The translations under genes were made by a program, and so were the position numbers. This document shows positions 1 to 62,600 of a stretch of DNA of 64,000 bases, in pieces. Origin of the DNA: a virus; IMG/VR virus record IMGVR_UViG_3300025108_000001, positions 35,251 to 99,250 of that record. The stretch is one strand, 5' to 3'. Numbering within the stretch: the stretch's first letter is position 1; the number at the start of each line of letters is the position of its first letter. Under the pieces are notes generated by a model, which worked only from the letters and a program-made list of their open reading frames with translations, did not search any database and was not told the DNA's origin.

Positions 1-610
1 ATCCTTCATCTGCCATTTCCTCTCTCTCTCTCCTACTGAGAGAATAATACCAATTTGCATATCTCTCTCTATCGTCTTCGTCATCATTTCCGCTAGGGTC
101 TTTAGATGACCCTTCTCCTATTTTTAAAGATTCTAAAACAGTATCAGTAAATACTTCTTCATCTTCTAAAACTCTAGGAATCCTAAATATCGGCTTATCT
201 CCCATTTCTGTATATGCACCTTCTGAATAGATAACAAAATACAGAATCTTCTCAATACCTTTGTATTTTACTTTTGTAGCGACACCGCCCTTTACATCGT
301 GTTCGTATAGGCCATCACCATCAGGATTATCTTCAAAGTTATATTTTTCATCTATTAATTTAGCAAACGTAATGTTTATCCCTAATTTAGACATTGCTTG
401 TGCAATATCTTCTAGTTCTTTACCTAGTTTTGTTTGATAAGTACTTTCATAGGGACTGGTTCGTTTTAAAGACTCATGTAATTTACGCGCAAATGGGATT
501 CTCATATTCATTGCTACTTCTTTATAATTATCAGTAAATCCGTCTTTGTCAATTCTAACGCCATTAGGTTTTTTAGTAAAATCTCTTTTTAATATATCTT
601 CCCAACTCAT
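1..610 (-). CDS. Hypothetical protein with N-terminal MSWEDILK tag (runs off the window edge; absent from ORF track)
   Basis: ATG at 610 (ccaactcat at 602-610) overlaps the stop of the upstream ORF; translates MSWEDILKRDFTKKPNGVRIDKDG... Confidence 0.75.
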   Translation of the reverse strand, partial: MSWEDILKRDFTKKPNGVRIDKDGFTDNYKEVAMNMRIPFARKLHESLKRTSPYESTYQTKLGKELEDIAQAMSKLGINITFAKLIDEKYNFEDNPDGDGLYEHDVKGGVATKVKYKGIEKILYFVIYSEGAYTEMGDKPIFRIPRVLEDEEVFTDTVLESLKIGEGSSKDPSGNDDEDDRERYANWYYSLSRREREEMADEG

Positions 611-933
611 TCTAAATCCCCCTTACTCTTTGGATAAACTAAGTCTCGTATTTGCCGATACAAAGTTTCGTAATCTTTTCTAAGTTCTGCTGCCGAAGAA
701 ACTATGTCTAAATTCTTTTCATCGAAACTCTCAAACTTTTTTTGTAGTCTTTTATCAGACTTAATTAAGTCTAATTTTTTCATCTCATCTAACAGGTCTG
801 AAAGATGAGTCATCTCTTGCCCCATGTATTCAGTAGGTTGAGTTTTTTGAAGAAGTTTCTTAAGTTTCTTTTTTTGTTTAGTATCAACTTTTTCTAAAAT
901 TGAAGATGATTTAAGTATTTCTTTCCAACTCAT
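607..933 (-). CDS. Hypothetical protein with MSWKEILK tag
   Basis: ATG at 933 after a GGTGG SD-like sequence; helical and Lys-rich. Confidence 0.8.
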   Translation of the reverse strand: MSWKEILKSSSILEKVDTKQKKKLKKLLQKTQPTEYMGQEMTHLSDLLDEMKKLDLIKSDKRLQKKFESFDEKNLDIVSSAAELRKDYETLYRQIRDLVYPKSKGDLE

Positions 934-982
934 ACTCAACCACCTTGTCTATCCGTTCTTATCTCTAGTTTATGAAGTTTCT

Positions 983-3121
983 TTATTTCAACTGATTACG
1001 GTCATTATACTCAGGGTTTTCATATTCAGATTCATCTGTGTCTGTAATATCATTCCCTTTAGGTGCATCTATGTTCTTACTAAAGAAGGCATCCACCTCT
1101 TTCTCAAGGGTTGTAATTTCGTTGCTAATCTTATTGAGGTCTCTTCTAACAGTATTTACGTTCCTTAAAGTAAGAACCGCCCATTTTTGTTTATCTAAAT
1201 CTGATGTCTGTCTTACTAATTTATTTAAAAAATTACTTTTCAATAACACATAATTTAGTATTTCAGAATCATTAATTTTAGAAGTATCATTTTCATCAAA
1301 CTTAGGCAAGGAAGTTTCGTTTTCTTTATTTAGTTTAAACTTCAATTTAAAATCTATCCATAACTTTTCAGTTCCTTTTCTTTCGTCTCTTAAACGAGTT
1401 AGTCTATTTCTTTCAATTACCCCCATATTCTCTTCCGTTCTTTCTCTAGAAGTATGCGGCTTTAAAAGATAACCGTATTCTACTGGTTGAATAACTTTCC
1501 TATCTACTAATTTGCTCTTACCATCTTTATCCTTTACACTTGCTAATGATGTTCCATCTTTATCCTTTACACTATTAAGTGGTAATTTAAATGAAGGCAA
1601 TCCTCCAATAGTTAATTTTTTCTCTAATTCTTTAAATATAGTATTATAAGTTTTTTTAAGTCTGCCTCTTGCTTTGGTTAGTTCAATTTGTCGTTCAAAA
1701 TCATCTGCAAGTTCACTACTTTCTTCTTGTTCTTCACTATCAGAACTTGATTCTGGAATATCAATACTAGTTAAATAATCTTTAAAATCCCTTACCGATA
1801 TTTCTTGTCCTTTAATAGAAAAAGTATTACTAAATAAAGAGCCTAAACTTACATCATCTTTCATGTAAGGCTTCAAATTATCAATGTCTTGTCTAGTTTG
1901 ATTATATTCTTTTACTACTGAATTTGGTAAAACTATACCTTTAGTTTCTAATATAATTTTTATAAAATGTAATATTTCGTGATACTCCTTTGCTTTCACT
2001 AGAGCAATGTCAAATTGTGAAATAGTGTTTTGTGTTTCGCCATCTAAATCCTTAGCCATTTCAGTTATTTCATTTTCTAACATAATAATTTTTTCCATTA
2101 TATCTAAAGCAATAGTTCTATAAAGAACCGAGTTTTGTCTGTTTAAAATTTTACTAATTTCTGTTTCGAGTTCACTATTATCTGCGGCAGGGTCATTAAC
2201 TACCTCTCCATCTTGACTAATAGTAGGGTTTCCCCCTCTAAAATACAAGTCCATTATTTGTTTAACATTATCAATTTTAGTAGGATAATCCATATTTAAA
2301 TAACCTATTAATTTAACACTGCTTAAATTAGTTTTAATATCATCATCAAAATCTATATCAAGGGTATCAAATATATCATTCATAATCTCTCTTGAGTTTT
2401 TATTATTATATATCTTAAATTGATTTAACCACCCGCCCACTTTTGAAAAGGACGCTCCCTCATCTACCAATAGATTACGCAACTCAGCAGCAATACGTTT
2501 TCTACCTTTAAAAAAATCATTAATTTCGCTAGATAAACTGTTAATTAATTTAACTTCATCTTCGTCATTTTGATTAACATTACCTCTTAATAGTATGTCT
2601 TTAAGTTGTGATGCTATTTCTTCGGTTTTGGTTGCTAGTGGTGAATCAAGATTTTTTTGTATTTTCGTAAAAGGGCTATCATCACTAAAAAGTAATTCAT
2701 GCACTTTAGGATATTTTTCCTCATTGTATTTACTTTTAAGGTTCTCTAAAGCAGTTTTTAAATTATTCAATGTAGTCAAATCATCACTTTGTCCGGTAGG
2801 AAGTAACTGAACTTCGGATACCTCTTCCAAATTCTTATTTTGGGTCTTAACTTTTCCACTTTTTCTTTTTACAGCATAGATTTCAGTTGTGCCGCTTGAC
2901 CCTTTAAAATTACCATCAAATATTATATCATGTTCAATAGGAGTATTAGTTGTTTCTAATTCCTTTTTTAATTTTAAAAACTCACGTTCTAGATTTGATA
3001 TGCTGTTAATAGAAACTGTATGAATTTCCTTTCTATTTTTAGATAGAACCTTTAATATCTTACTCCACGGATTTTTTCTTGCTTTCACAATATCTTTTTT
3101 TAAAATATCCATGAACGACAT
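983..3121 (-). CDS. Large helical hypothetical protein, possible internal virion protein (tag variants MSFMDILK and NPWSKILK)
   Basis: 712-aa ORF in the head gene block; no recognisable catalytic motifs. Confidence 0.7.
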   Translation of the reverse strand: MSFMDILKKDIVKARKNPWSKILKVLSKNRKEIHTVSINSISNLEREFLKLKKELETTNTPIEHDIIFDGNFKGSSGTTEIYAVKRKSGKVKTQNKNLEEVSEVQLLPTGQSDDLTTLNNLKTALENLKSKYNEEKYPKVHELLFSDDSPFTKIQKNLDSPLATKTEEIASQLKDILLRGNVNQNDEDEVKLINSLSSEINDFFKGRKRIAAELRNLLVDEGASFSKVGGWLNQFKIYNNKNSREIMNDIFDTLDIDFDDDIKTNLSSVKLIGYLNMDYPTKIDNVKQIMDLYFRGGNPTISQDGEVVNDPAADNSELETEISKILNRQNSVLYRTIALDIMEKIIMLENEITEMAKDLDGETQNTISQFDIALVKAKEYHEILHFIKIILETKGIVLPNSVVKEYNQTRQDIDNLKPYMKDDVSLGSLFSNTFSIKGQEISVRDFKDYLTSIDIPESSSDSEEQEESSELADDFERQIELTKARGRLKKTYNTIFKELEKKLTIGGLPSFKLPLNSVKDKDGTSLASVKDKDGKSKLVDRKVIQPVEYGYLLKPHTSRERTEENMGVIERNRLTRLRDERKGTEKLWIDFKLKFKLNKENETSLPKFDENDTSKINDSEILNYVLLKSNFLNKLVRQTSDLDKQKWAVLTLRNVNTVRRDLNKISNEITTLEKEVDAFFSKNIDAPKGNDITDTDESEYENPEYNDRNQLK

Positions 3122-3133
3122 AATCTAACTTCC

Positions 3134-3364
3134 TTAGAATGGTATATTTTCACTACGCATATTCTTTCTTTTAGGTGTTATCATAACATCAGGAATATTA
3201 CTAGGTGCATCGTCTGTTTTATTTTTTAACGTAGTGCTAGGGTCTACACCAACAACTGCATAGTCTCTACTAATGTTGACATTACTCCTTTGTTCCGCAC
3301 CTTCTTTAATTCTCGCTTGCTTCAATTCTCTTTCTAATTGTCTTACACTTTTTTCTTCACTCAT
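3134..3364 (-). CDS. Small hypothetical protein
   Basis: ATG at 3364 after GGTGA SD; MSEEKSVRQLE... Confidence 0.65.
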   Translation of the reverse strand: MSEEKSVRQLERELKQARIKEGAEQRSNVNISRDYAVVGVDPSTTLKNKTDDAPSNIPDVMITPKRKNMRSENIPF

Positions 3365-3369
3365 ATTAA

Positions 3370-3624
3370 TCACCTGTTTCTCTTTTCTTCATCTAGATTT
3401 TTCTTTGCTCTTGCTATGAAAGACTTATGCCCTCCAGTTCTTGGGGGAGTAATACCTGTAAATGAAGGACTAGCAGGGTTTTCAGTATACATTAAACAAC
3501 TTCCGTTATTACTAATGTTTACGTTAGGTAATGTGCATTTCATATTTTTATTATGTTTACATTTACTGGCTTTACAAACATCTATTCTGCATTCTGCTTC
3601 CTTGACTATATTTTTCCAACTCAT
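3370..3624 (-). CDS. Small Cys-rich protein with MSWKNIVK tag
   Basis: C-x3-C-x4-C-x6-C...C pattern; basic C-terminus. Confidence 0.7.
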   Translation of the reverse strand: MSWKNIVKEAECRIDVCKASKCKHNKNMKCTLPNVNISNNGSCLMYTENPASPSFTGITPPRTGGHKSFIARAKKNLDEEKRNR

Positions 3625-3625
3625 T

Positions 3626-3895
3626 TTAATCTCTCCTCATTTCATCTTGCATATCTTCTAAGTGTTTTTCATATTGATTTCTTTCTTCTTGGGTAGTCTC
3701 TTCTCTATCTTTCTGATTCATTACATTTCGTGGTTGTTCTTTTCCTGAAGAATTAACCATATCTTGTAACTCTCTTCGTTCTTTGGTTTTTTGCCTTTCA
3801 TTAGTAAAGGAAACCGGACTACCATTTACCCTTCTATTCAGACTTATTTTTTTTCTTGCCGTATTTTTTCTTTTAACTATCTCAAACCAACTCAT
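3626..3895 (-). CDS. Small charged protein with MSWFEIVK tag
   Basis: ATG at 3895; tightly packed in the operon. Confidence 0.7.
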   Translation of the reverse strand: MSWFEIVKRKNTARKKISLNRRVNGSPVSFTNERQKTKERRELQDMVNSSGKEQPRNVMNQKDREETTQEERNQYEKHLEDMQDEMRRD

Positions 3896-3896
3896 C

Positions 3897-4100
3897 TTAA
3901 TCACTTAATTCCTGTTTAACCCAATCGAACTCATCTTCAACATTATATTTACTAAGTTTGTTTCTTATGTTATTCCAACTTGCCCCAAAGTCTAATAGTT
4001 TTTTTGTGTATTCTAAAACACTTTTTTTTCTATTACCATAATCTATCCATTTTGGATATGAAAAAGATGGTTCAAACTTTAAGGCTTCAAACCATGTCAT
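3897..4100 (-). CDS. Small protein with MTWFEALK tag
   Basis: Abuts the portal stop codon. Confidence 0.7.
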   Translation of the reverse strand: MTWFEALKFEPSFSYPKWIDYGNRKKSVLEYTKKLLDFGASWNNIRNKLSKYNVEDEFDWVKQELSD

Positions 4101-5759
4101 TTAACCAACTCTCCTTTCTGTTCTTTTGTCATTATTTTGATTCCCTGCATCCTTTGGTAATCCTGAAAATCTTTTATCGGGAGCATTAAACATACTAGGC
4201 TTGTTTCTTTTTTTAGGTGGTTCTGATTTAACTTTTTCGGGAACACCCGCTTCGGCCATTGTCGGTTTATTTCCTTCCGCCATCATTTGACCTAACTGAC
4301 TAGCATCAATATCCGTACCTGCGTAAGGGTCAAGTTCAAACTCATCTTCTTTACCCTGTTGTTTTTCTTTTTCTTCCATAGGTTTATCATAAGTAAACCT
4401 GCCTTCTGAATCCATCTTTACTTCAAATCCTAAGTTCTTTATTGCCCCTGCAATATTAACTTCCATTTCTCTTAGTCTTAATTTAGCAATTTCATCTTCT
4501 TCTTCCGAAGGTGGAAGTTTTAATTCCCAATCTGTAATACCAAATTGATTAGTAATAAAGGGAAACACATAATTATTCCAAGTCGTTTGAGCCATCTCTA
4601 CTGCGCGATTAGTAACAAGTATTTGCATACCTTCGTTATTTAATCCACCGCCCGCAGAAGCGTCATTCATAAACACTTTACTTACACCATAAAAGGCAGA
4701 AATTCTATCTCGTAAATCATCTTTTACTGCAACATATTCCATTTCTTTTAGGCTATCCATGAATCTAACCCATTCAACAGAACCCTTTCCGGTTTCCGAT
4801 TCAATTCCCATTACCGGAATAAAGTGAGGGTCTTGTTCCATCTTTTCTTTAACACCTCGCCAAAACGATTTCATTGACTCCATATTTCTTGTCTGAACAG
4901 CCAACAATCCCTTCGGCATTCTTGCCTTAGTATATGATGAGTTAACATAATTATCCATTGCAATTAATGTAGTAACATTATTCCACAAAGTAAGAATAGG
5001 AGACATACCATATAATCTAGAAGGGGAATATTTGCTAAAGTGAACTACTTCCCCTTTGATGAAATATTGTTCTTCTCCGTTAACACGATTAACATAATGA
5101 ACAGGATACAATTCTGAATTACAGGTCTCACAAGTTTCACTCGGATGTTCATGTATTCTGTCTCTATGGCGCAGACAAACATAACCCCCTTTTCCTCTTT
5201 CGCCAAGTTCATTAGAATAAATGTGCATAGTAACAGGGTCGCCTCTAAACACTTCTTTTATTCGATGCATTCTAACCTTAGAATTATTGTCTAAATAATA
5301 TTCCTTTACTGTAACTAAGTAAGCATCATCCATTATATTCAAATCATCTTCTAATTCTTTCAATACATCTATGAACATTTGGTCTGCATTATTTACATAT
5401 CCTTCTAAAAAGTTTTTAGCATACACTAATTGTTTTGAATCCGGTTTAACTAAATCAGTAGATTCACAATCTGTGCATTGTAGGACGGGATTAGTATGTT
5501 CTTTTCCACAAGAATTACATTTTAATGCAAATTTTTCCTCCCACAAATACCCTCTTCTGAAAACCTCTTGTTTAAGTTGGGTAATACAAGTCCTAACAAT
5601 AGTTGACTGTTGCACTATATGATAAATAATAGGACTAGTTAACATATAGGAATTATCTCTTTCTTGTATTCCTAAATTGTAAACCGTTCTATCAGCAGGT
5701 TTAGGTGTAGTATTTCTAAATAGATTACTAAATGAAAATTTTCTTTTCTCTTCTACCAT
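4101..5759 (-). CDS. Portal protein (with inserted Zn-finger-like segments)
   Basis: 552 aa near the terminase; portal-like segments (VVHF..SPSRLYGMSPI, MDSLKEMEY..VKDDLRDRISAFYGVS); acidic, disordered C-terminus. Confidence 0.8.
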   Translation of the reverse strand: MVEEKRKFSFSNLFRNTTPKPADRTVYNLGIQERDNSYMLTSPIIYHIVQQSTIVRTCITQLKQEVFRRGYLWEEKFALKCNSCGKEHTNPVLQCTDCESTDLVKPDSKQLVYAKNFLEGYVNNADQMFIDVLKELEDDLNIMDDAYLVTVKEYYLDNNSKVRMHRIKEVFRGDPVTMHIYSNELGERGKGGYVCLRHRDRIHEHPSETCETCNSELYPVHYVNRVNGEEQYFIKGEVVHFSKYSPSRLYGMSPILTLWNNVTTLIAMDNYVNSSYTKARMPKGLLAVQTRNMESMKSFWRGVKEKMEQDPHFIPVMGIESETGKGSVEWVRFMDSLKEMEYVAVKDDLRDRISAFYGVSKVFMNDASAGGGLNNEGMQILVTNRAVEMAQTTWNNYVFPFITNQFGITDWELKLPPSEEEDEIAKLRLREMEVNIAGAIKNLGFEVKMDSEGRFTYDKPMEEKEKQQGKEDEFELDPYAGTDIDASQLGQMMAEGNKPTMAEAGVPEKVKSEPPKKRNKPSMFNAPDKRFSGLPKDAGNQNNDKRTERRVG

Positions 5760-7084
5760 TAAGCAATCACTCCTTCTAATTTATCCATCTCAAACATTTT
5801 ACACTTATCGTGTAATTTAAAAACAGTAGTAATATCAATACCATCCTTAGAAAAATCATAACCAACATGGTCTTTATGATTTTCATATTTCATTAATTGA
5901 AATAATTCAGTTTTTCTTTCATCATACCAATCTGCTTTTTTATAGGATTTTTTCATTCGTAATAACTCCAATAATATATCTGCGTTTTTCCCTTTCATTC
6001 TAAAATGTGGCCTACATTTAGTTAATAATTCGACTACATCATCATGGGAATAAAAATTTAATCTGTTAACAGGTCTAGTGTCTTGCGGAGATTTTTGGTC
6101 TAAATGTAATCTACCGCAACCTAATGATTTATGCATCTCTAACATAAACGCCTTTCCTCTTTCTCCTGTTGCTACCAAACCTACTCTTGGATTGAACTTT
6201 TTATCCATAGTAATATAGCCATCCGAATCTATGAAAGCCGCAGTATAAGCATAAATATCTTTTTTAATATCATCACTAAACTTATAGAAAGCACCATTGA
6301 CATTAGTAACATTGCAAGATATAGCCATCTTGGAAATTATACTTGGAGTAGTTTTATGAAATAAATTCTTAGGTAGTCTTTCATGTATTTGCCTTGCTGA
6401 AATTCCTGATTCTTCGCTAACTAAAGAAACAATGTTGTGTTTAATAATTTCTTTTTTATTAATTGATTTCAGGTGTTTTTTAATTAGATGTTTAAACTCT
6501 CTCTTAGAAGATGTCATCTCTTTGGATAGTTTAGCAAAATTACTATTATAACCGATTTCATTTTTATCTATTTTTGCTTCCCAATATTTACACAAAACAT
6601 CTATTATTTTTCTTCTTGTATTTTCATCATCAACATATGATAGTTTGATTAGTTGGTCTTCGCTACAAGTCATATCTTGTACTTGAGATTTATATTTACT
6701 TAACCAATAAATATTATCAATACTATTTTCTAAATGATTAGCGTAACCGTCAATTAAATTATCAATTGATTTTGACATTTGTATTCTATCTTCTCCTTTC
6801 AGAGTTCTTCTATACTTACGCATTTTTTTAATCATCTTAGGGATATCTGTTCCTTCGACTTCATATTTTTTAAGTTTATATTCAAGATGTTTTCTTGCAT
6901 CTGTTAAAGATAAATCAAACTCTTTAGCAAATGTTTTTTCCAATTGAGTGTGGTCTGATATAGTAGAATCAACTAACCAACTTCTCTTCAAATCTTCGGT
7001 TATTCTTTTTTGTTGTTCTTCTAGGGATTCTTCTTCATCGGCAAGGTGTCCGAGTTCTCTTAATTTGTCTCCTTTTTCACTAAT
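5759..7084 (-). CDS. LAGLIDADG endonuclease-domain protein with long helical and wHTH-like N-terminus (probable ATT start)
   Basis: YTAAFIDSDGYI LAGLIDADG motif, LGCGRL and PHFRMK segments; frame open to ATT at 7084, preceded by GGAGGTGA. Confidence 0.75.
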   Translation of the reverse strand: MSEKGDKLRELGHLADEEESLEEQQKRITEDLKRSWLVDSTISDHTQLEKTFAKEFDLSLTDARKHLEYKLKKYEVEGTDIPKMIKKMRKYRRTLKGEDRIQMSKSIDNLIDGYANHLENSIDNIYWLSKYKSQVQDMTCSEDQLIKLSYVDDENTRRKIIDVLCKYWEAKIDKNEIGYNSNFAKLSKEMTSSKREFKHLIKKHLKSINKKEIIKHNIVSLVSEESGISARQIHERLPKNLFHKTTPSIISKMAISCNVTNVNGAFYKFSDDIKKDIYAYTAAFIDSDGYITMDKKFNPRVGLVATGERGKAFMLEMHKSLGCGRLHLDQKSPQDTRPVNRLNFYSHDDVVELLTKCRPHFRMKGKNADILLELLRMKKSYKKADWYDERKTELFQLMKYENHKDHVGYDFSKDGIDITTVFKLHDKCKMFEMDKLEGVIA

Positions 7085-19940: not shown

Positions 19941-20137
19941 AAAACACCCCCCCAGTAAACACATTACCTTCTAAAAGACTCAAGTTTAATATTATTCCGT
20001 TTCCTACTATTTTTGTGGGTAATAAAATGTTTTACCTAACGAAAAGTGAAAAATGTGGTGGAATTTTTTTACCACTAGCGCGCGTTTTTTTTTTAATTTA
20101 CTACCATAACCGTAATAAGGATACTATTATTAAAAAA

Positions 20138-20380: not shown

Positions 20381-20618
20381 GCCTACCACTAGTAAAGTTA
20401 ATTAAATTAACGATAATAAATAAAAAAAAATAAAAAAAATTTGCAAACAAAGCATATGGTTGGAGGCTAGGTTTAATCCAACCATATGGTATGGCTGTGA
20501 CTTTGGTAAGGCCAACCCTATCTGAATATAGTGAGTTATAGTATGTCAGAAGTTAAGGACTTACACGATGAAATAAAAATTTGGAGACAGCATATGAAAG
20601 AATGTAGGAGTGGTTTAA

Positions 20619-21014
20619 ATGAATAATATATTTCAACATAGGCATTATAATTATCTTGCTTTAGAATTGCCCTTTATATTGGGTTTAAATGAAGCCGAGG
20701 TTTCTTCTATGGCTACTAATCTGAAATACCATAATGAAAATTTTAATCATAATAGATTTATGAACACATGGCGTAGAGAAGTTGAAAGAAGGAATGATGA
20801 AATGGAAATTACCATAGATAATCTTTCACATTATACATTTGATACAGAAGCACACAATTCGGGTAAATGTCCTGTTTGTGGAATAAACAACATAGGATAT
20901 TACAAAGACGAAGTTGGCGTACTACGCCAATGCTTTGACTGTGGTTCTGAATGGAATGATGAAATGGAAATTACCATAGAATTAACCGAAGAAACAGGAA
21001 GTGAAGTAGAATGA
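20619..21014 (+). CDS. Zn-ribbon protein with an internal 28-bp direct repeat
   Basis: CPVC...CFDC; GGAATGATGAAATGGAAATTACCATAGA at 20791 and 20953. Confidence 0.7.
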   Translation: MNNIFQHRHYNYLALELPFILGLNEAEVSSMATNLKYHNENFNHNRFMNTWRREVERRNDEMEITIDNLSHYTFDTEAHNSGKCPVCGINNIGYYKDEVGVLRQCFDCGSEWNDEMEITIELTEETGSEVE

Positions 21015-21289
21015 ATATAGAAGAATATGAGAAAATGAATTGGAAAACACCATCTGATGAATTAGAAGATGCGGTGGAAAACTTAGTTGCAGAAGTGAAA
21101 AAGTTGCGTGAAGTCATAAGGAAAACCGAAAACCTTTGTACTCACAATTATGTGACTATATCGGACTTTGAGATTAACGGCATAAATGTCAGCGTTACTA
21201 TCCAATGCGATAGGTGCGGAGAAACACAGCAACAAACTTTAGACATAGAGCAGATAATATGGGATTTGGAATTGGGGTGGATAGATTGA
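21011..21289 (+). CDS. Small coiled-coil plus Zn-binding protein
   Basis: CTH...CDRC; ATGA overlap. Confidence 0.65.
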   Translation: MNIEEYEKMNWKTPSDELEDAVENLVAEVKKLREVIRKTENLCTHNYVTISDFEINGINVSVTIQCDRCGETQQQTLDIEQIIWDLELGWID

Positions 21290-21407
21290 GTAAAATATTA
21301 GGTTAGAACAAACCTAACAAAAATTGTTCCCCTGAGGGGGGTTGCGTTTCTCAAAGTTCCACTTACAACCATATGGTGTGGTGGCGACTTATACATGAGT
21401 AATGTAA

Positions 21408-21437
21408 TTACTCTTGTTCTTCTTCTTCTTCGTCCAC
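21408..21437 (-). CDS. Acidic micro-ORF (M)DEEEEEQE
   Basis: GGAGGTGA SD 5 nt before GTG. Confidence 0.45.
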   Translation of the reverse strand: MDEEEEEQE

Positions 21438-21572
21438 GTTTATCACCTCCCAATGTGGTAGCGCATCAATACTGATGCTACCATATGGTTGTGCGCGTTG
21501 TAAAACTTTGAGAACAATGTGCTGCAACCCGATGGTCTTTCGACCAAAGGGCTACCATGCATTGTGAGTGCC

Positions 21573-21605
21573 TTAATTTTCCTCTTCTTCTTCATCGTCT
21601 TTCAT
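21573..21605 (-). CDS. Acidic micro-ORF MKDDEEEEEN
   Basis: AAGGAGGT SD 8 nt before ATG; followed by a GGTC-GAAA-GACC hairpin. Confidence 0.45.
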   Translation of the reverse strand: MKDDEEEEEN

Positions 21606-21730
21606 GGTAGCATACCTCCTTTCATACTATACAGTCTGATAACTAATATATGAGGTATTACTCAAAGTTTCATACCATATGGTTGTGTAACACTTTGTAG
21701 TTCATAACCCCACTATTTTTAGTAAAATAG

Positions 21731-21946
21731 TATCATAGGGCTTCGGTGAAAGTTGATTCTTTTCATACTTCTAGCAGTGGGAAATTCGTTGTGCTAATAT
21801 TGTTCAACCGATTAATTATACAATACTGTTCTAGAATAGTATGCATATGTCATTGAAATTTTAATAGAGACAAGAACGAATGTTCTGACAAATCTAAAAG
21901 TGGGATAAATCCTGTGATTCAATCAATTCACTTCAGCCCTGTGATA
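21731..21946 (+). ncRNA. Candidate structured non-coding RNA
   Basis: 21731-21758 pairs with 21921-21946 (three helices, with a U-G wobble only on the + strand); no ORF of 60 aa or more. Confidence 0.35.
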
Positions 21947-21957
21947 TCTTGGGAATT

Positions 21958-22179
21958 TTACATTTGATTTAGTGCATCAAGGTAGGTCTTGAGTACATTG
22001 AGTGCTTTACCTGTTTCTTCTACTACTTGAGAAGGTGAATCACCTCTAATTTTAAGAGACTTAACAATGTAGACGTGATTTGAACCCGACTTAGATTGGG
22101 AAATCTCAATCTCATAGGGGTAACTCAAGTTTAGTATCTGTTCGGGTTGCGTTGTTTGAACTAACGGTTCTGTTGACAT
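21958..22179 (-). CDS. Small hypothetical protein
   Basis: 73-aa ORF between palindromes at 21674 and 22231. Confidence 0.6.
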   Translation of the reverse strand: MSTEPLVQTTQPEQILNLSYPYEIEISQSKSGSNHVYIVKSLKIRGDSPSQVVEETGKALNVLKTYLDALNQM

Positions 22180-22323
22180 ACTACCTAGAACAAAAAAGAG
22201 TATATGGGATAGAACGACAAAGTGTATCCTACCATATGGTTGTAAGTGTGCTTTGCTAACGAAACCCTATCCTGTTTTGACTTTACCAATAGTGTAAGAG
22301 GGTGAAACCCAATATATACAGGA

Positions 22324-22809
22324 ATGATAAATATGACAGAACAACAAACAATAGAAGAAAAAATTGATTTAATAACGACATGGATTGATGAAACTGATAG
22401 TTTCAACGATGATAATAATATGAGTAATTGGGCAACTTCTTCATGGGCTTACGCTCTTGAAGAATATGCGGATACTGGCATAAAATCAGTAATCACAACG
22501 ACAATTTCTCAATTTTCTAGGGCTGCTAAAAGATTTAAACTTAGTGATTATCCTCTAGGCACTAGAGGTTCAAACTCTGTTTCTGCTGAAACTCAAGCGG
22601 AAATTGACGCACACAACCCATTCTTAGATTTTATGATGGAAGCATACGAGGCTCTGCCTGAAGTTAGCCACATTCACGCTAAAAAATCAAAGGCACGACC
22701 TGACAGACGCTACCTATCAGCGAAAGATTTTAGAAATCATTGGCTAGGTATAATCACAGACAACGCAAAGGAGGCCGCTAAAACGGCTGATGTGGAGGCT
22801 ACTCAATAA
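22324..22809 (+). CDS. Hypothetical protein flanked by a 15-bp inverted repeat
   Basis: 161-aa ORF; GTGTAAGAGGGTGAA (22292-22306) and TTCACCCTCTTACAC (22820-22834). Confidence 0.7.
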   Translation: MINMTEQQTIEEKIDLITTWIDETDSFNDDNNMSNWATSSWAYALEEYADTGIKSVITTTISQFSRAAKRFKLSDYPLGTRGSNSVSAETQAEIDAHNPFLDFMMEAYEALPEVSHIHAKKSKARPDRRYLSAKDFRNHWLGIITDNAKEAAKTADVEATQ

Positions 22810-23094
22810 TTGGGTAGCCTTCACCCTCTTACACCTCAGGGTTTACATTAACAAAGCAACATTCCAAACCATATGGTTGTAGGTCTTAGATACACAAGGA
22901 TAGTAAATGGAATTTATGTACTTTATGGTGGGTCGGTCGGCTTATATATGGTTTCGTGAATCCAGTGGTGTAAATCAAGAGATGACATCATTTGCCTGAG
23001 TGTAATCTATATTTCATATAAAGATAGTATCCTTGTGGAAAATACCTTTCACTACCTACTACAACACTCATTTTGATGACTCATACTCTTGTTC

Positions 23095-23450
<356 letters not shown>

Positions 23451-24271
23451 ATTACATCACACTCACACATAAGGATTGTCTCGTAAATCTAGGACTTGAA
23501 ACTACTGAAACAGGTATAGCAATATTCCCTCAGTAGCAGAAGGTGTTAGTTGACCTTGTGGGAACTAGGGGTTTTTTACAGTAATAAGAACCGAGTAAAT
23601 AATTTGTTATCCTTAGCGGGATTGCAAGTTAAACCACTCAGAAGAAGATGCAGAAGTTTGCATTAGAAGAACCAAACCAAACAGTTGAGATTCAAACAAC
23701 TGAATTACAAGTAGCGAAAAATGACCTTCATCAGAACGGTAGTGAAGTAGCAAACGTCTTTCAAGTGCGAATTAATTCTTAGTAGGGTTGGGAAATCTAA
23801 AAAATGCTTTCTTTGGAAAAGGTATTTCCGAAGAACTAAGCGCAATAATGATGAAAGCAATTTTAGTCATGGTCTTTCGAGGCTATGCATTTGTAAGTAA
23901 TATTAGTAGTCGGCATAAGCAGTGAAACATCATTGGTAACATTTGACAATTGTTATCATACCACCTTCGTGTAAAGCGGCATAGTACGTTTTTTCTTTCC
24001 CCTTTCAAATTCAAAAATATCCTGTATGGGTTTTACCCTTACAAATGGACTTGTCTTTACTGTCATAGAGGCAAGTCCTACAACTCAAAATATCTTGATA
24101 ATTGATACTGTCATCTGATATAACTGAGTTAGGTTTTAGATAATAATAAATTGGATAAATTCGTTTCGTTCTGTAACGTGTTGGCATCTCCTATCTAGTC
24201 GTGTGGTGCGACCCAATTTTCCTAACTATCCCATTCCCAAATATAACAATAAAAATAAAGAGGAAATAAAA

Positions 24272-31905: not shown

Positions 31906-32895
31906 ATGAAGTGTGTTGAATGCGACTGCACCACTACAACCTTCGATGAAAGAATGGGTGAAACTATTTGTTCTGATTGTGGTTTGATATTATCAGTAAA
32001 TATGTTTGAAGAAACTAGTGTATCAGTCAGAAGTAATGACAAAGCATTGGGTAATTCCTTTTCTAAAATCCGTGATGCTGACTTTAACGGATTGGGTTCA
32101 ATGATTGGAAGACAAGATATTACAAACAGGAAGACCTTCTATTTATTTGAAGAACAAAGAAGGACTGTTTATGATTCATCGACAACAAACTTTAGGCTAT
32201 CTGCAAGTATGTTCTTATCATATTATAATGGTAAAAAACTACTACAAGAAGCAACAAGGAAATATAAAACTATGAAAGAAGAACACTTAGTAAGAGGACT
32301 ACCAATAGAAAACGTAGCGGCGGGAATAGTTTATTATGTGTTAAAAGACAAGGGAATATCTGTTTCATTGAAAGAGTTTTCAAGACAAAGTAAAATACCT
32401 ATTAAAAATATATTAAGGACTTCCAAAAGAGCGAAGAAGAAGTTCGGTTGTACTGATTTCAATTTTATAAATATAGATAATATAATAACTGAAACCATAG
32501 AACGTATTCGTGTTAGACAACAAGATACAATAACAATACACAATCGAAAACACAAAGGTTCTGAAGGCCATGTGAGATATAAAAACAACCGTACCAGTTT
32601 TGAAGATATTCAAGGAGACTTAAGACGAGATTGTTATAGGTTCGCTGAATATGTTAAGAGATGTTATGATTTGTTCGATGAGACTTTAACTAAAAGCGAC
32701 ATAATAGCGTCAATGTGGGTAGTGTCTCAGATTTATAATTCACAAAGTATCACTACTGCCGCACTATCAGAATGTGGTGGGTTTAGTGAAGTAACCTTAA
32801 GAGAAAAAAGAAAAAGAATTTGTTCTAATCTAAAATTAGATATAGACAAGATTAAACTTTATACTATTAATAATATAATAGACGGAGTAAGATAA
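31906..32895 (+). CDS. tfb: Transcription initiation factor TFB/TFIIB homolog
   Basis: N-terminal Zn ribbon (CVEC...GETICSDCGLIL); cyclin repeats (RGLPIENVAAGIVYY; SEVTLR). Confidence 0.85.
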   Translation: MKCVECDCTTTTFDERMGETICSDCGLILSVNMFEETSVSVRSNDKALGNSFSKIRDADFNGLGSMIGRQDITNRKTFYLFEEQRRTVYDSSTTNFRLSASMFLSYYNGKKLLQEATRKYKTMKEEHLVRGLPIENVAAGIVYYVLKDKGISVSLKEFSRQSKIPIKNILRTSKRAKKKFGCTDFNFINIDNIITETIERIRVRQQDTITIHNRKHKGSEGHVRYKNNRTSFEDIQGDLRRDCYRFAEYVKRCYDLFDETLTKSDIIASMWVVSQIYNSQSITTAALSECGGFSEVTLREKRKRICSNLKLDIDKIKLYTINNIIDGVR

Positions 32896-34910: not shown

Positions 34911-35413
34911 ATATGGAAAATAGCAGACAAACAACATTGAAAGAATTTGGATTAGTATTTTTGGTAGCAGTAATGTTATCAGGATGCGCGGGTGAAATAA
35001 TACCCGACCCTCCATCGGATGATGATAGAGTTATTCCTAACTCTTCTACATTAGAAGGTTCTTTTACAGTATTGGTTGGAGATGAAAATGCAACTAAACC
35101 TACAATCACATTGGGCAATTCAACAACATGGTTAGAAGTAATTAGTTGTAATTATACTGTAACCCACTTAAGTTTCACAGTAGATAATAATACTGTAACT
35201 TTCCACAATTATACCTTTGAAGTCGGAGGATACGTGTCTCAAAACATAACTTACACACATAGACTTAATGCCGATATTATTTATTACGATTATCTTTGGT
35301 CTAGCGGCTATGCTCCTTCTATTGGAACAGTAGACCTATACTTCTCTGATTTTACATATGATATAACAATTAACTATACTATTACATATAGAGAATGGAG
35401 AGGAACGGAATGA
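34907..35413 (+). CDS. Predicted lipoprotein
   Basis: Hydrophobic signal ending in lipobox MLSGC; T/Y/N-rich beta-like body. Confidence 0.65.
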   Translation: MNMENSRQTTLKEFGLVFLVAVMLSGCAGEIIPDPPSDDDRVIPNSSTLEGSFTVLVGDENATKPTITLGNSTTWLEVISCNYTVTHLSFTVDNNTVTFHNYTFEVGGYVSQNITYTHRLNADIIYYDYLWSSGYAPSIGTVDLYFSDFTYDITINYTITYREWRGTE

Positions 35414-56677: not shown

Positions 56678-59600
56678 TCATGTATTATTCTGCATTGTAA
56701 TTGCGTAAAAGGTTGCAGTTAAGGTTGCAGTTGTACCTTGTTTATTTTGATACCTTATTCTAATAGTATCGTCACTTGAATCATAATCTGCCGCCAGTGT
56801 TCCTATTCTTGCAGAGCCATCAAACAATATAGCCCATTCAGTAAAGTTAACTGCCCTTACAGTAGTTCCCAATACTGTTTTTTCTGTTGCTTGAACTAAC
56901 GCCTTGAAAGATTCTACCTCTTCGTTAGTTTCATCTTCTATCTGAATTGTTAGTTCTATTGTCTGTAATCCACTTGCTCCTGTAAATGAATCTAAATCCA
57001 TATTCATTAATTCAATATATCCATCGTTTGCTGTTGAAACGCTACTAACTTCACCTGCAACTATACCTGCTTCATTGTTAGCACCGAAGTATATTCCTGA
57101 TGTTGTTCCACTTGTTCCTGAACCTATTGTTACATCGGTAATAGTTTCAAATGCGGATTCTATTGCGACACCATTGTTTGTTAATCCATTAGGGAAATCT
57201 ACTACACCTGTTGAAGCACCTGTAATCCAAGTAGGCGAACCATCACCTGATGCGATAACTAATTGGTCATTACCTGTTGCAGACGGCACATCAGCACCAC
57301 CAATAACTACGTTGTTAGAACCTGTTGTAATATTATTTCCGGCATCATAACCAATTGTAATGTTTTTATCAGCAGTTGTTATTAAATCCCCCGCACCGAA
57401 TCCTATACCTATGTTGTTGTTGCCTGATGTTACATCATTTAAGGCACTATTACCAAGAGCAATATTCAAAGAACCTGTTGTAGTATTATACAACGTTGAA
57501 GGCCCAATTGCTACGTTATTACCTGAAGATGTCATTTGATGACCATACAAGGCCATTCTACCTATTGCTACATTATTATTAGAAGATGTAGTTACGTTAG
57601 TATTTCCCTGACCTGCATACTGACCAATAAATGTATTACTTTCCCCCCGAGTCCATTGACCTGCACCACCACCTATAATTGTTGAATAAGACCCTATCGC
57701 TGTTCTATTACCGGCATCTGCGCCAATAGCAGTAACCCATGTTTGTTCACCATTAACTGTTCCTCTATTCCCAGCACTACTACCAATAAATACATTCTTT
57801 TGAGAATTAAGGCCGGTATTTTGCCAGTATTTACCTGCACTGTTTCCAACCATTACATTGTTAAAGCCCTCAGCATATTGACCTGCACTTTGTCCTATTG
57901 CTACTGTGCTACTTGAGTCTGCTGATTCAGACAGCGCATTAGAACCAATTACTACTGTTTCGTGTTTATTTCCTGTTAATGACGAACCTGCATTATATCC
58001 AATCAACACAAGTTCCCTATTAGTTGTCAAAGCATCTCCGGCATAGTTACCAATAACTACGTTTTTCGTACCGCTTGTTAATGTTTTAAGTGCATCCTTA
58101 CCTATCCCTAAATTGTCATTGGCACTACTTAGTGTGCCATGTGGAGGTGCAGCATTATCAGGAGAAATTAGAATACTATCTGTAAAGTTAGTAATGTTAC
58201 TAATTACATCTGTTAAACCATTAAGAGCAGAAGCACCGCCACCTGCGGCATCTTCCCAAGCAACACCGCTTCCTGTTGAAGTTAGGATTTGGCCGTCAGA
58301 ACCTTGTCCTCCATTTACTTTGAAGTTTTCAGCATCAACTAATCCAAAGAAAGAATCCTTGAACTTGAGAGATGAAGTACCTAAATCAACATCGTTATCA
58401 GTTGCCGGATATAACTTACCATCTTGAAGATAGACTTGGTAATCCCCACCTGCTTGTAAGCCTAGTCTATCTAATGAATACATATAATTTATTGCACCTC
58501 TAATACTATCACTAGAATTATAGAAGAAAATAGCACCATTATTAACAGCGTTATTTGTAGCGTCTTTCTTAAAATTAATTCTTGAATATTGATTATTTAT
58601 ATTTAACCCCGCATTATCCAAATTAACATCACTTGTGAATGTTTTAGCGCCACTAAATGTTTGTGTACCTGCTAATGTAGCATCACCCGCAGTACCCCAA
58701 CTAAAAGAACCATCACCATCTGATAATAATGCGTCACCACTACTACCATTACCACTAACATTTAATTGGTCTGCTCCTATACCATCATCAGCAACCTTCA
58801 AAGTTAATTCGAATGGAGTACCTGTATCTCCTGTGCTTACATCTGTAAAGGTAATATCTAAACCATTACCTTCATTAAACTTAATAAATCTACCATCAGG
58901 AATAAGAACATCTGTATCTGAACTGTCTCTTACAGTAAAGGCCATTTTAGCAGGTAATGCTCCGAATGTTCCATCATGCTTTAAGAAATGTCCTGTTGTA
59001 CCTGCTGATGGCAAAACACCACCATTACCTGTTCCAACTAAAGTTCTAATTTCTGGCGCAGTTAAATCATCAGTAGCATCAGCATCTCCTGTAAAACCTA
59101 AGTCTGCTAATGTTAAGTTTCTTGTGGCTATTGTAGCATTAGCATCTGTAACGTGTCCTAATGTATCAGTAGTTATATTGAGGTCTAAATCTGAAATAAC
59201 AGTTGCACCCGATAATAATGTTGTATCAATATCTATATCATCTCCATCATGTGTAGGATGAGTATAATTATTAGCATTTTCAGCAATATTATCTAATTTT
59301 GATTTTAACGCATCAGTAAAGTCGTTTTCTGTAAGACCACCATCACCTACTGAATATGTAGTGTTTGTATAATTAGAAGAATGAATTGTTCCCGCACTAC
59401 TACTCGTCCAATCTATTACTTTATTAGCAGTTAAAGCACCGACATATCCCCATTGTGTCGCATTAATTGTTGCAGTACCAATGTTTTCTAACTGCTCTCC
59501 TTCTGATGCTGTTAAATTAGAAAGTTCAGTTACTTGTGATATAGCAATTGTTTTATTTGTTAGTATGTCAGTAGTGTCTCTCCCAATTAAAAACGCATTA

Positions 59601-62600
59601 GCATTAGGTAAAGTAATAGTTCTATCAGCAGTAGGGTCAGTAATAGTTAATGTAGTCTCATAATCATCAGAAGTAGCCCCTTCAAAGACAATAGCATTAG
59701 CCGCTTCCATAGTTACTGTGTCTATTTGTGTTGTTGTACCCGCTACATTCAAATTAGGAACTAATAATGTTCCTGTGCTTGGATTGTATCTTAAAGCCCC
59801 TGTATCATCATGTAATGCACCTGTGCTTTCGTTTGCGAAAACAACAGGGAAGTTAGTGTTATCAGTATTATCTGTAACTAAGATTATATTGTCAGAACCA
59901 TCAAAAGATACTCCGCTAATTGTTCTTGCTGTTTCCAGTGCAGTTGCAGTTGGAGCAGTACCAACTGCTAAATTTATTTTACCTGCTCCTACACCGCCAT
60001 CTGCATAGGTTGCACTTATTCCTGTTTCAGTATTAGTAGCAAACATTGCACCTACTATATCTTGAACCTGTTCTGTCGTTATTTGAGCAGAAGATATACT
60101 AGTTAAACCGCCTAATAGATTTAATTCAGTAGCACTAACAGTAACAGCAGTACCCGCAATAGATAATTTACTATCGGGAATATCAAAGGTAGCATTATCT
60201 TTTATTCTTGCTACTTCTGTACCGTCATATTGTTGAAAGATAATTTCCTTTCCATCCACTGCGGGCATTATAATAGCATCAGAAGTTCCTATTGTTCCAC
60301 TAGAAGTAGGGGTTGTTAATCTTAGATATGGGGCTATTCCTCCTTCATATCCCTGCCAAAAATAAGTTCCTTTGTTTGCACCGAGTCCGGCACTACCTAT
60401 CAATACTCTATCGCCACCAATAATTTCCATAGAACCGAATGTTCCAGTACTACCTGTTTCATTAGCAATATATGACCTATGAACATTACTAGTAGTATCT
60501 GATGTTATTCTTAAATAATCGTCTGTATTTATATCATCATAAACAAGTAGCCCGTCTGAACTAGAAGTGCCTGTAACTTTTAGTTTACCAGTAAAGGCAG
60601 GGTCATCAGTAGGTTGTTTAGCAGTATTTGCAGCAATATCACCAATTGATGAAAGTTGAGCATCTGTTATTAGGTTCTTATCAGTTCCACTTGTAAAATT
60701 AGTAGTTGTAAATGTAGGTGTTGCCCCACTAATAACAGATTGGTCTAATGCTTTAACATGAGCAATTGCTGTTAATTCGCTATCCATTAATGCACCTGCT
60801 GATGTAACATTTGCTGTATCTGTAACATCAGCACCCGCTTCTATACCACTTAACACATGAGATTTGAGAACTGATATATCCATTCTCTTTAATGCGCCAC
60901 TACCACTATTTTCACCTGCATCATTAAGAATTAATTCATCCGTATCAGCAAGTCCTGTTGTTAATGCCGTAGCACCTGTAATATCTCCTACACCGAAGTT
61001 AGATGCACCACTAGCAGATGCACCAATAGCAGTTCTAAAGTCCGAAGCACTTAACGCTGAAACACCATTATCGGCATCCATTCTAAGAAATCTTATTGCA
61101 CCTGTATCTGCTAATGTAAATACTTCTGCACCAAAAGTAGAAGCACCCAAAGCAGTTCTAGCCGCAGTAGAATGCGCGGCAGTAATTACTGAAATCATTG
61201 GTGCATATACTTCTCCTATTACACCTTCTGTTGCGGCAAGTCTTCCTAAGAAGATATTACCCGTTTCACCTGCACCAATGTTTTGCATTTTTGTAAAGGT
61301 AACAGCATCATTAGCCAACAAACCACTAGTAACTGAACCTGCTGTTCCTATTGTAGTGTCTAAAGTAGCACTAAAAACACCACTTCCATCTTTACCTAAT
61401 CTTAAAAGACCGTTTGAACCTGTGCTTGGGTCTGCAATATGAAACGCTTTAATTCCTACATTAGTAGCACCTAAGTTTGCTAATGCATTTGTTTGTTGAG
61501 TTGAGTTTAAACTTTGATTATTAACATCTACTCTCAATCTATTCCCTAAAGAAGTAGCCATAGTGGTTGAAAATGAAGCATCATCACCTAAAGCCGCAGC
61601 CAATTCGTTTAGAGTATTTAATGCATCAGGTGATGAATCAACAAGATTTGAAATTTGAGTTCCAACATATGATACTATTGATTGTTGAGTAACAAGATGG
61701 TTTGCTGAATTAGAGGTCATAGCATCTTCATCTTTGACAGGAACAACAAAGTCTAAATTTCCATTAACATCATCATATCCTACTGTAATGAAAGTTTCTG
61801 TTCCGTCAAGCATACCCCCTACAAAATCTTCTATTTCTTCTTGAGTGCGAATAGTTTTAAGAGTATTAGCATCTATTTCCGCGAGTAATGTATCTGCTAA
61901 CTTATCTTCTGTTATTGCATCATCAGCAATTCTGTCTGTTCCGAAAGTTCCGTCAGTAATTTTATCAGCGTTTAGATTGGGAATATCTGTTGCCGCTAAG
62001 TCGGGAGTAAATGCATTACCTGCACTTAATGATAAACCGCTACCTGCTGTATAAGTAGTATTTGTATCAGTAAATACAGCATTAGACGGAACATTCTTTC
62101 CAACAGTAAAAGTAGATACAGTATCAGCATCAATAGTCATTGCATTAATTTCACTAGCAGTTAATTGTGCAATAGGTGCAAGATTAGTTAATACAGAAGT
62201 GCTGTTAAGATAAGTTGTTAATTGAGCAACAGTCATTTCCCTGAGAGCAGAGTTAGATGTATCATGTATTACGAATGAATCACCCGCAGCAAGAGAGTCT
62301 AGATTTGCTGCACCTGTTATATTACTAGCACCTAAAACAACAGAAGTTAGATATGTATTAGTATCTAAACTTGTGCTAAGAGTCCCATTTGTATTTGTTA
62401 ATTTTAATAACCCATTAGTATTATTGTTAGGATTTGTAGTAGCAACTATTTTTTCACCAATTGTAGTTACATCATCTAGTATGTCAAAATGAGCAGATGT
62501 CAATAACCCTGCCGCACTTGTTGTCGCGGCTGAATATGTGGTATCTTGAGTAGGGATTGTAAAATCAGCATCGGGTATAGTTACTGTTCTATTTGCAGTA

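Follow-up and report, generated by a model that had tools for sequence, protein, structure and literature searches.

An invariant palindrome as the probable centre of promoter/terminator joints between accessory-gene units of a magrovirus

The DNA analysed here is a window of 64,000 nucleotides (positions 35,251 to 99,250) from the complete 99,250-bp viral record IMGVR_UViG_3300025108_000001 of IMG/VR. Between window positions 20441 and 22890 it contains an array of small genes in which the 10-bp palindrome ACCATATGGT occurs six times. These palindromes are probably the centres of an intergenic joint that is specific to magroviruses, which are abundant and infect uncultured archaea of Marine Group II. 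In a block of accessory genes this joint would separate one complete transcription unit from the next. A joint would consist of the palindrome, invariant over its 10 bp, a CTTTG box 3-16 nt away on either side and, further out, an ACCC box. Beside the 5′-end of a gene the joint would provide an archaeal promoter from which transcription starts at or next to the ATG, giving a leaderless mRNA, and beside the 3′-end of a gene ACCCC would form one strand of a GC hairpin that is followed by T's. The palindrome itself would serve as the binding site of a conserved protein dimer that controls the joints and perhaps cuts them. Since all joints share one exact sequence, which equals its own reverse complement, an exchange between any two of them could delete, duplicate, insert or invert a whole unit and leave working joints behind, and no dedicated recombinase would be needed.

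Anatomy of the array

The six exact copies of ACCATATGGT start at 20481, 21368, 21480, 21674, 22231 and 22868, with palindrome-to-palindrome intervals of 887, 112, 194, 557 and 637 bp. The chance expectation is 0.09 copies, and the maximum in any of 100 dinucleotide shuffles was 1. In the whole 99,250-bp genome all copies are confined to 20481-22877, and the count for a reversed-pattern control was 0. A preliminary description of this DNA, made from the letters alone, had already listed the six palindromes, a variant at 20451 and the intervals, and had not noticed the palindrome elsewhere; counts and coordinates agree with it throughout, with 0 further copies in the complete genome. The variant AGCATATGGT, which has one mismatch, is a boundary half-site that is kept in 10 related arrays, and the left array edge is marked by the context AAATTTGnAAACAAAGCATATGGTTG or ..GCCATATGGTTG in 10 of the 15 loci compared. 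The same description had placed most copies in a larger dyad, GGGTT..CAAAG..palindrome..CTTTG..AACCC. This dyad is complete at palindrome 5, where the left of the two full arms reads GGGAT; CAAAG and CTTTG are both present at palindrome 4, only the right arm at palindromes 1 and 3, and only the left arm at palindromes 2 and 6. Composites of the form CTTTG-N4-16-A[AC]CCC number nine genome-wide, six of them inside the array. The array is made up of the following features.

20446..20463, no strand: left-boundary half-site, CAAAG fused to AGCATATGGTTGG; one-mismatch variant that heads the leftward gene arm
20481..20490, no strand: palindrome 1, exact copy
20491..20542, plus: predicted promoter arm 1R, with CTTTG at 20501-20505 and AACCC at 20514-20518, then a TATA-like stretch
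20543..21343, plus: unit A, with a putatively leaderless 27-aa open reading frame (ORF) at 20543-20626 and ORFs at 20619-21014 and 21011-21289
21338..21367, minus: 3′ arm 2L, GGGGTT..CAAAG (CAAAG at 21352-21356), without TATA
21368..21377, no strand: palindrome 2, exact copy
21378..21479, minus: micro-ORF unit 1, with the 9-aa acidic ORF VDEEEEEQE at 21408-21437
21480..21489, no strand: palindrome 3, exact copy
21490..21673, minus: unit B, with predicted promoter arm 4L (CAAAG at 21663-21667) and the putatively leaderless upstream ORF (uORF) MKGGMLP at 21602-21625
within the span of unit B, plus: arm 3R, with CTTTG at 21506-21510 and AACCC at 21526-21530
21674..21683, no strand: palindrome 4, exact copy
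21684..21957, plus: arm 4R (CTTTG at 21693-21697, AACCCC, TATA-like stretch) and its predicted transcript
21958..22230, minus: ORF73 (21958-22179) and predicted promoter arm 5L (CAAAG at 22218-22222, ATCCCATATAC)
22231..22240, no strand: palindrome 5, exact copy with full dyad
22241..22834, plus: arm 5R (CTTTG at 22251-22255, AACCCTATCC) and the ORF161 unit, with the ORF at 22324-22809
22839..22867, minus: 3′ arm 6L, GGGTTT..CAAAG (CAAAG at 22852-22856), without TATA
22868..22877, no strand: palindrome 6, exact copy, right edge of the array

For the promoter statistics both sides of each palindrome were pooled as arms, from the array of the window and from those of its relatives. CTTTG is found 3-17 nt from the palindrome in 180 of 214 unique arms, with spacer modes of 4 and 8 nt, and on both sides at 64 of 95 sites, while the four positions that flank the palindrome (+/-6-9) carry weak information of 0.2-0.45 bit each. 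In 45 of 155 arms an ATG is found at a distance of 41-44 nt from the C of CTTTG (19 at +42 and 13 at +43), compared with 2-3 at each other offset. Among 719 independent arms the numbers of ATGs at +41, +42, +43 and +44 were 36, 46, 44 and 32, and about 12 elsewhere. The ATGs at +41-44 have no Shine-Dalgarno (SD) sequence; many other genes of this genome have one of the GGAGG or GGTG type. Between CTTTG and the ATG lie ACC(C/T) and then a TATA-like stretch, the centre of which is some 24-26 nt upstream of the start codon. Because the spacing from CTTTG to ATG is fixed, a TATA-like box lies between them and an SD is absent, this geometry is read as an archaeal promoter that would drive leaderless mRNA. 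CTTTG would then be an upstream element at about -42 to -38, ACC(C/T) and the TATA-like box would occupy about -31 to -20, and the centre of the palindrome would lie in the non-transcribed spacer. In the window the 41-44-nt rule fits four arms: 1R (ATG at 20543, 42 nt, no SD), 4L (ATG at 21625 on the minus strand, 42 nt), 5L (ATG of ORF73 at 22179, 43 nt, no SD) and 5R, where a panhandle arm at 22292 is reached after 41 nt.

The gene content of the virus agrees with promoters of this type. Portal and terminase are encoded in the window, as are an RFC-like clamp loader and a family-B DNA polymerase (PolB) that is split over two ORFs, the latter being a mark of group B magroviruses (PMC5434244). 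Tailed-virus head genes are thus combined with an archaeal-type replication set that includes a split PolB, and the genome is that of a group-B magrovirus. The virus also encodes a homologue of the archaeal transcription factor TFB:

31906..32895, plus: virus-encoded TFB/TFIIB homologue; Pfam Zn_Ribbon_TF and TFIIB both slightly below their cut-offs

A profile of eight viral TFB copies matched TFIIB/TFB structures over nearly the full length (E 1.9e-16), and the homologue, with zinc ribbon and cyclin repeats, was found in the related loci that extend that far. No TBP gene was found in the genome. The RFC-like protein, the split PolB and the TFB homologue therefore point to archaeal-type transcription. 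Two bacterial readings were considered and rejected. A crAss-like phage with virion-RNA-polymerase hairpin promoters does not fit, as the giant ORF at 56678-64000 (minus strand) has no DFDxD and resembles a repetitive tail fibre. A Bacteroidetes sigma-A promoter (TTTG / TAnnTTTG) is contradicted by both the spacing and the positions of TA. Between relatives the viral TFB diverges fast, from 88% down to 23% identity.

Arms beside the 3′-ends of genes differ from those beside 5′-ends. Sorting by the nearest gene end gave the following counts.

Arms at gene 5′-ends (n=69): CTTTG in 68, ACC in 56, TATA-like box in 47
Arms at gene 3′-ends (n=71): CTTTG in 67, ACC in 60, TATA-like box in 6

At 3′-ends ACCCC makes up one strand of a GC hairpin, for example CCCCGAAGGGG, and the sense strand often reads CCCC-UUCG-GGGG followed by U's. 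In the window the hairpin CCCC-TGA-GGGG at 21329-21339 after unit A, which is followed by GGTT, is of the same type. With the T's that follow it, a hairpin of this kind looks like a terminator or a 3′ stabiliser. Since the 5′ arms carry promoter features and the 3′ arms GC hairpins, the sites are interpreted as bidirectional promoter/terminator joints between complete transcription units. Stems of at least 5 bp around CTTTG were present in 35% of arms and in 17% of shuffled controls, which is a weak tendency; in the sites of the window itself such stems measure 1-3 bp, with one of 6 bp.

The ORF161 unit, whose predicted mRNA has a leader, offers an indication of where its transcript starts and ends. 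A 5′ panhandle arm at 22292-22306 and a 3′ arm at 22820-22834, directly after the stop codon, are perfectly complementary over 15 bp. The panhandle is kept in four homologous cassettes (two copies in the related locus L014, the others in the related loci L005 and L008) as 10-14 bp of different sequence with compensatory changes, so that pairing covaries in 5 cassettes of the ORF161 family in total. In the window the C of CTTTG is followed by the 5′ arm after 41 nt, and in the other four cassettes this arm starts at matching positions. Because the covarying 5′ arm begins there, the 5′-end of the RNA would lie where the promoter model predicts it, and because 5′ and 3′ arms covary, each unit would be a complete transcript. 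The panhandle could stabilise the mRNA or couple its ends. The ORF161 family is the most widespread family of the arrays and is present in multiple copies in or beside most of them. No member reaches a Pfam cut-off, there is no significant PDB profile match, and the all-helical AlphaFold model (predicted local distance difference test, pLDDT, 84) has no Foldseek match. ORF161 was also considered as a DNA-binding protein and rejected, as neither profiles nor model gave a hint of a DNA-binding fold.

The contents of the other intervals are as the preliminary description had given them, with the addition of the 27-aa ORF at 20543-20626 and the 7-aa uORF at 21602-21625 (minus strand). No unit protein matches a Pfam or PHROG family above threshold. 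In micro-ORF unit 1, which is conserved in L005, L008 and L014, a conserved hairpin at 21457-21482 overlaps palindrome 3, and an SD GGAGG on the minus strand lies at plus-strand coordinates 21446-21450. In unit B the 10-aa acidic ORF MKDDEEEEEN (21573-21605) overlaps the MKGGMLP uORF, and a GAAA-loop hairpin follows downstream at 21534-21545. Both acidic micro-ORFs (21408-21437 and 21573-21605, minus strand) are preceded by a strong GGAGG, and their equivalents in L005, L008 and L014 read MFDEED, MFDDEEN, VYDDED and VDEDEEEEQE. The start predicted for arm 4R, near 21735, has no ATG, and its transcript would be either non-coding or translated as a 36-aa GTG ORF at 21746-21856. The start of this transcript, ATAGGGCTTC, recurs in L005, its counterpart in L014 is ATAGGACTTC, and the transcript matches no Rfam family. 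The ORF73 family was found in 6 loci.

Conservation and exchange of units among relatives

Loci of relatives were fetched through the helicase that lies to the right of the array. All relatives that cover the region, down to 46% helicase identity, have 4-9 exact copies of the palindrome, mostly within the 2-5 kb upstream of the helicase; viruses with a helicase identity of 37% or less have no copies. The composite CAAAG-N3-11-ACCATATGGT-N3-11-CTTTG is present in more than 119 IMG/VR contig stretches, usually clustered and mostly on contigs of 60-100 kb, and arrays of the exact palindrome are carried by over 100 related viral contigs. A full-dyad scan of 596 Gb of cellular species-representative genomes yielded 51 stretches with the CAAAG-palindrome-CTTTG composite, of which 50 hold a single site; this is about the chance number, and these 50 are scattered over unrelated taxa, with none from Poseidoniales. 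The remaining stretch, with five joints, is L202 (NZ_NZTP01000027.1, 14.7 kb), which is assigned to a metagenome-assembled genome of Altibacter (Flavobacteriia) and is probably a mis-binned magrovirus fragment. A host origin of the motif was rejected on the basis of these chance-level single matches. The magrovirus literature searched makes no mention of a promoter or palindrome, and in the literature searched for the 10-mer it is present in primers only. Within the arrays 97 exact copies compare with 14 one-mismatch variants, 10 of which are the conserved boundary half-site and 4 of which are non-boundary copies.

The content, order and orientation of the units vary between relatives. Relative to the window, L014 (99% helicase identity) lacks unit A (20481-21368) between homologous flanks, has the micro-ORF unit inverted and the ORF161 unit duplicated. 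Two inversions run exactly from palindrome to palindrome: that of the micro-ORF unit (window 21367-21493 versus L008 7365-7245) and a second one between L005 (5128-5262) and L008 (6722-6590). The break points were analysed from BLAST blocks for all pairs of 15 loci, which gave 203 distinct ends of homology blocks inside arrays. The ends lie within 25 nt of a palindrome centre in 87 cases and within 10 nt in 57, whereas random placement puts 20 +/- 4 ends within 25 nt (maximum 35 in 2000 trials).

The preliminary description had taken the palindromes for integron- or shufflon-like cassette sites, and had named a comparison of relatives and a recombinase search of the rest of the genome as ways to check this. 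The comparison turned out as it had supposed, with variable units and break points at the palindromes; the search, extended to the whole genome, yielded no tyrosine recombinase (PF00589, no match at E<=1, controls positive) and no serine recombinase (PF00239). A dedicated site-specific recombination system of integron or shufflon type, run by an unrecognised recombinase, would explain the exact palindrome-bounded inversions and the gain and loss of units at the sites. All of these systems indeed consist of small gene units that lie between repeated, symmetric sites, at which units are gained and lost and, in the R64 shufflon, inverted. In integrons, however, the tyrosine recombinase IntI is encoded beside the array, the cassettes are promoterless, co-oriented and expressed from one Pc promoter, and attC sites are conserved in structure and not in sequence, whereas the magrovirus units lie on both strands, have their own predicted CTTTG/TATA promoters and share a 10-bp core that is invariant in sequence. 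The R64 shufflon uses Rci and inverted sfx sites inside a coding region, swapping C-terminal segments, whereas the magrovirus sites lie between genes. In addition, a perfect palindrome has no asymmetric core that could direct the outcome of recombination. Membership in the integron and shufflon classes fails on every defining feature tested, and a site-specific system is regarded as highly improbable.

An operator is the more serious alternative, and the preliminary description had named it as its second choice, with a dimeric protein as the binder; that reading is partly right. According to this explanation the palindrome is an operator or upstream activating site through which a dimeric transcription factor of virus or host switches the accessory promoters jointly, and shuffling is a by-product of homologous recombination, as in the promoter-early stem-loops (PeSLs) discussed below. 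The palindrome lies just upstream of the promoter on either side, its centre about 50-58 bp from the predicted archaeal starts, its dyad extends weakly to 18 bp, and the boundary half-site heads the leftward gene arm. Regulatory sequences at early promoters of crenarchaeal viruses, some of them with inverted repeats, provide a precedent (PMC11065993). Operators normally drift, however, whereas here about 97% of the copies other than the boundary half-site are exact. Distances to the promoter vary and show no helical phasing, and sites are kept between two gene 3′-ends and beside units that have no CTTTG promoter. Neither the arrays nor their immediate surroundings were found to hold a conserved small gene for a DNA-binding protein; the small genes left of the array were tried as regulators and rejected, as they are not conserved beyond close relatives. 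Taken together, an operator is judged possible, though it is the less probable account.

Several observations also weigh against the interpretation of the sites as joints. The starts, the ends and the timing of the transcripts are predictions from the DNA, and an ATG at +42 is found in about 30% of arms only, the others leading to genes with leaders, to RNAs or to nothing. The distance from palindrome to CTTTG ranges between 3 and 17 nt, which is unexpected for a rigid activator-promoter geometry, and CTTTG and ACCC are also kept beside gene 3′-ends, so that a pure promoter role is insufficient. Invariance of 10/10 positions across deeply diverged viruses would be unusual for a transcription-factor operator, and the protein proposed to bind the palindrome is a candidate only. 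As BLAST blocks tend to stop at the only conserved stretch, the enrichment of break points stands for exchange at or near the joints, and it cannot separate homologous recombination from cutting and rejoining.

The position of the array suggests a further explanation, in which the palindromes are iterons or initiator sites and the array marks a replication origin. The array lies exactly at the point of divergence between the structural arm of the genome, on the minus strand, and its replication arm, on the plus strand, and the cumulative GC skew has its minimum there, near 20,000. A conserved, repeat-rich non-coding stretch of 1.3 kb follows the array, and in a distant lineage two palindromes lie among repeated GGTTTTACC motifs. 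The skew switch is not independent evidence, though, because gene direction changes at the same place. The sites are scattered at irregular intervals over 2.4 kb (2-5 kb in most of the related loci), each tied to a gene boundary, unlike iterons clustered around an unwinding element, and the CTTTG-to-ATG rule is a feature of transcription. The palindromes are thus very unlikely to be origin sites. The stretch between array and helicase (22880-24200) itself has no ORF longer than 51 aa. Conservation is highest in 23092-23594, which shares 89% identity with L005. Features of the stretch include a TATA box (22941-22949), a (CT)18 run (about 23313-23348), repeats of GAGAATGAGAAA and inverted repeats rich in A and T. 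The stretch may represent a long non-coding RNA or, alternatively, a replication origin.

A candidate palindrome-binding protein

The joint interpretation calls for a conserved dimeric protein, and one candidate is encoded in the window between terL and the portal gene.

5759..6991, minus: protein with a winged helix-turn-helix (wHTH) domain and a single LAGLIDADG motif, YTAAFIDSDGYI; candidate palindrome binder

Enzymes with a single LAGLIDADG motif act as homodimers on palindromic or near-palindromic sites of 18-22 bp and cut the central 4 bp. I-CreI and its variants are the best PDB matches of the viral protein, with weak scores (E 0.0037-0.57). It matches the PHROG endonuclease family phrog_5046 at E 1.3e-6 and no Pfam family. 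Full-length copies of the protein are encoded by 27 of 27 array-bearing records and by 0 of 5 controls, and conversely all 8 of the contigs that were found via the protein and are at least 62% complete carry 4-14 clustered palindromes. The motif FIDSDG, its Asp and the residues aligned with the catalytic ones of I-CreI are invariant down to 39% identity. The slot between terL and portal is kept in three divergent lineages (24-93% identity), and the gene behaves as a core gene rather than as a homing endonuclease of sporadic occurrence. Its role may be in packaging.

Two distant lineages bear on the link between protein and palindrome. Lineage G047 (29% identity) has just two palindromes, both in the 16-bp form CCAACCATATGGTTGG, which enclose one gene of 413 aa at a distance of 1.86 kb from each other. 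These copies (L317:17900-19980) sit among about eight GGTTTTACC-like repeats, and the arrangement may be an ancestral one-cassette form beside an iteron-type origin. Lineage G049 (24% identity) has no CCATATGG and no over-represented palindrome. A covariation test of the link found no changed palindrome in these distant orthologue lineages, as G047 has the same one and G049 has none.

A homodimer of this protein could cut the palindromes, after which ligase would rejoin the joints, or it could bind only, as a WhiA-like regulator. The dimer would sit on the palindrome, with the wHTH domains reaching the flanking CTTTG boxes via flexible linkers, and a cut across the central ATAT would leave self-complementary 4-nt 3′ overhangs. 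The ATP-dependent ligase that the virus encodes would join any two cut joints in either orientation and regenerate perfect palindromes. Such a model would account for the 10/10 invariance, for inversions that are exact, for the absence of a recombinase and for the presence of CTTTG on both sides regardless of gene direction; the single motif with I-CreI as best match, the co-occurrence in both directions, the invariant catalytic-type residues and the two CCAACCATATGGTTGG copies retained in G047 also speak for it. The similarity to I-CreI is weak, however, and the co-occurrence is confounded by shared ancestry. The gene occupies the same slot in the palindrome-free G049, which points to an array-independent role in packaging or in the head. 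The information of the site falls within +/-1-5, with the 0.2-0.45 bit at +/-6-9 noted above, whereas I-CreI-type sites are read to +/-11, and cutting the own genome 6-14 times would need tight control. A role of this protein at the palindromes, by cutting or by binding, is therefore considered doubtful.

Compared with I-CreI-type enzymes and WhiA, the magrovirus resembles these systems in that its genome combines a palindromic DNA site with the gene for a conserved LAGLIDADG protein that has one motif and an added helix-turn-helix. It differs in having many sites in its own genome instead of one site in an empty allele, in a specificity that resides in the central 10 bp, and in the existence of an orthologue in a palindrome-free lineage. 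The full proposal, that magroviruses run a natural restriction-ligation exchange of cassettes in which a domesticated homodimeric LAGLIDADG nuclease cuts a universal palindrome to ATAT overhangs and ligase rejoins them, is quite unlikely. If it were true, whole promoter-gene-terminator units would move within and between co-infecting viruses via one shared adaptor.

Comparison with known systems

The closest functional analogue of the magrovirus joints is the PeSLs of T4-type phages, described as mobile regulatory cassettes by Arbiol et al. 2010 (PMC2839356), in which excised mini-circles are formed by exchange between neighbouring modules (PMC2839356). The analogy concerns a functional class and not a homology family. 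In both cases short repeated intergenic modules link a promoter to a stem-loop terminator, in magroviruses as read from the sequence, and flank small non-essential ORFs in a hyperplastic block, and in both the break points of insertion, deletion and replacement fall at the modules, as they do here for 87 of the 203 block ends. The magrovirus promoter, however, would be of the archaeal TATA type with leaderless mRNAs, whereas that of the PeSLs is a sigma-70 promoter. The magrovirus module is also dyad-symmetric and bidirectional, centred on an invariant palindrome that is neither promoter nor terminator. Whole-unit inversions are found in magroviruses, and there is no sequence homology between the two systems.

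The closest archaeal precedent is the early regulatory sequences of crenarchaeal viruses (SIRV2 and others), which are virus-specific sequences around strong promoters with a TFB recognition element (BRE) and TATA box, in front of small single early genes (PMC11065993). Some carry inverted repeats that were proposed as repressor sites (Bhoobalan-Chitty et al. 2024, PMC11065993), and the class is associated with immediate-early expression and anti-defence gene products (PMC11065993). The magrovirus arrays likewise have a virus-specific conserved sequence with putative BRE/TATA elements, repeated before small, single, fast-evolving genes. The crenarchaeal motifs vary from virus to virus, whereas the magrovirus palindrome is identical across the whole group; its conserved core lies upstream of the promoter, is common to two divergent units and is also present at gene 3′-ends.

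The present analysis adds to the description of such arrays the difference of 5′ arms from 3′ arms, the support that the panhandle gives to the start site, and the examination of a candidate binding protein. The array gives a concrete promoter model for magroviruses and their hosts, with a CTTTG box, a TATA-like box, leaderless starts and predicted start sites. The palindrome can serve as a family-wide tag for finding fast-evolving accessory genes, which are probably host-takeover or anti-defence genes. If the joints work as proposed, regulatory punctuation would double as a universal joint for the exchange of gene units in an archaeal virus, in parallel to the PeSLs of T4-type phages.

Some further observations concern the genome as a whole. 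It has no DNA match among cultured phages, whose helicases are at most 34% identical, and it contains no tRNAs; Rfam gave nothing above threshold and merely sub-threshold miRNA-like hairpins. The record opens with 25 nt that are found again at about position 93811, some 5.4 kb before its end. The 'direct terminal repeat', which starts inside a repetitive fibre-like ORF of 2,400 aa and may be an effect of assembly and not the true genome ends, is perhaps about 5.4 kb long and would span genome coordinates 1-5440 and 93811-99250 (window 58561-64000).

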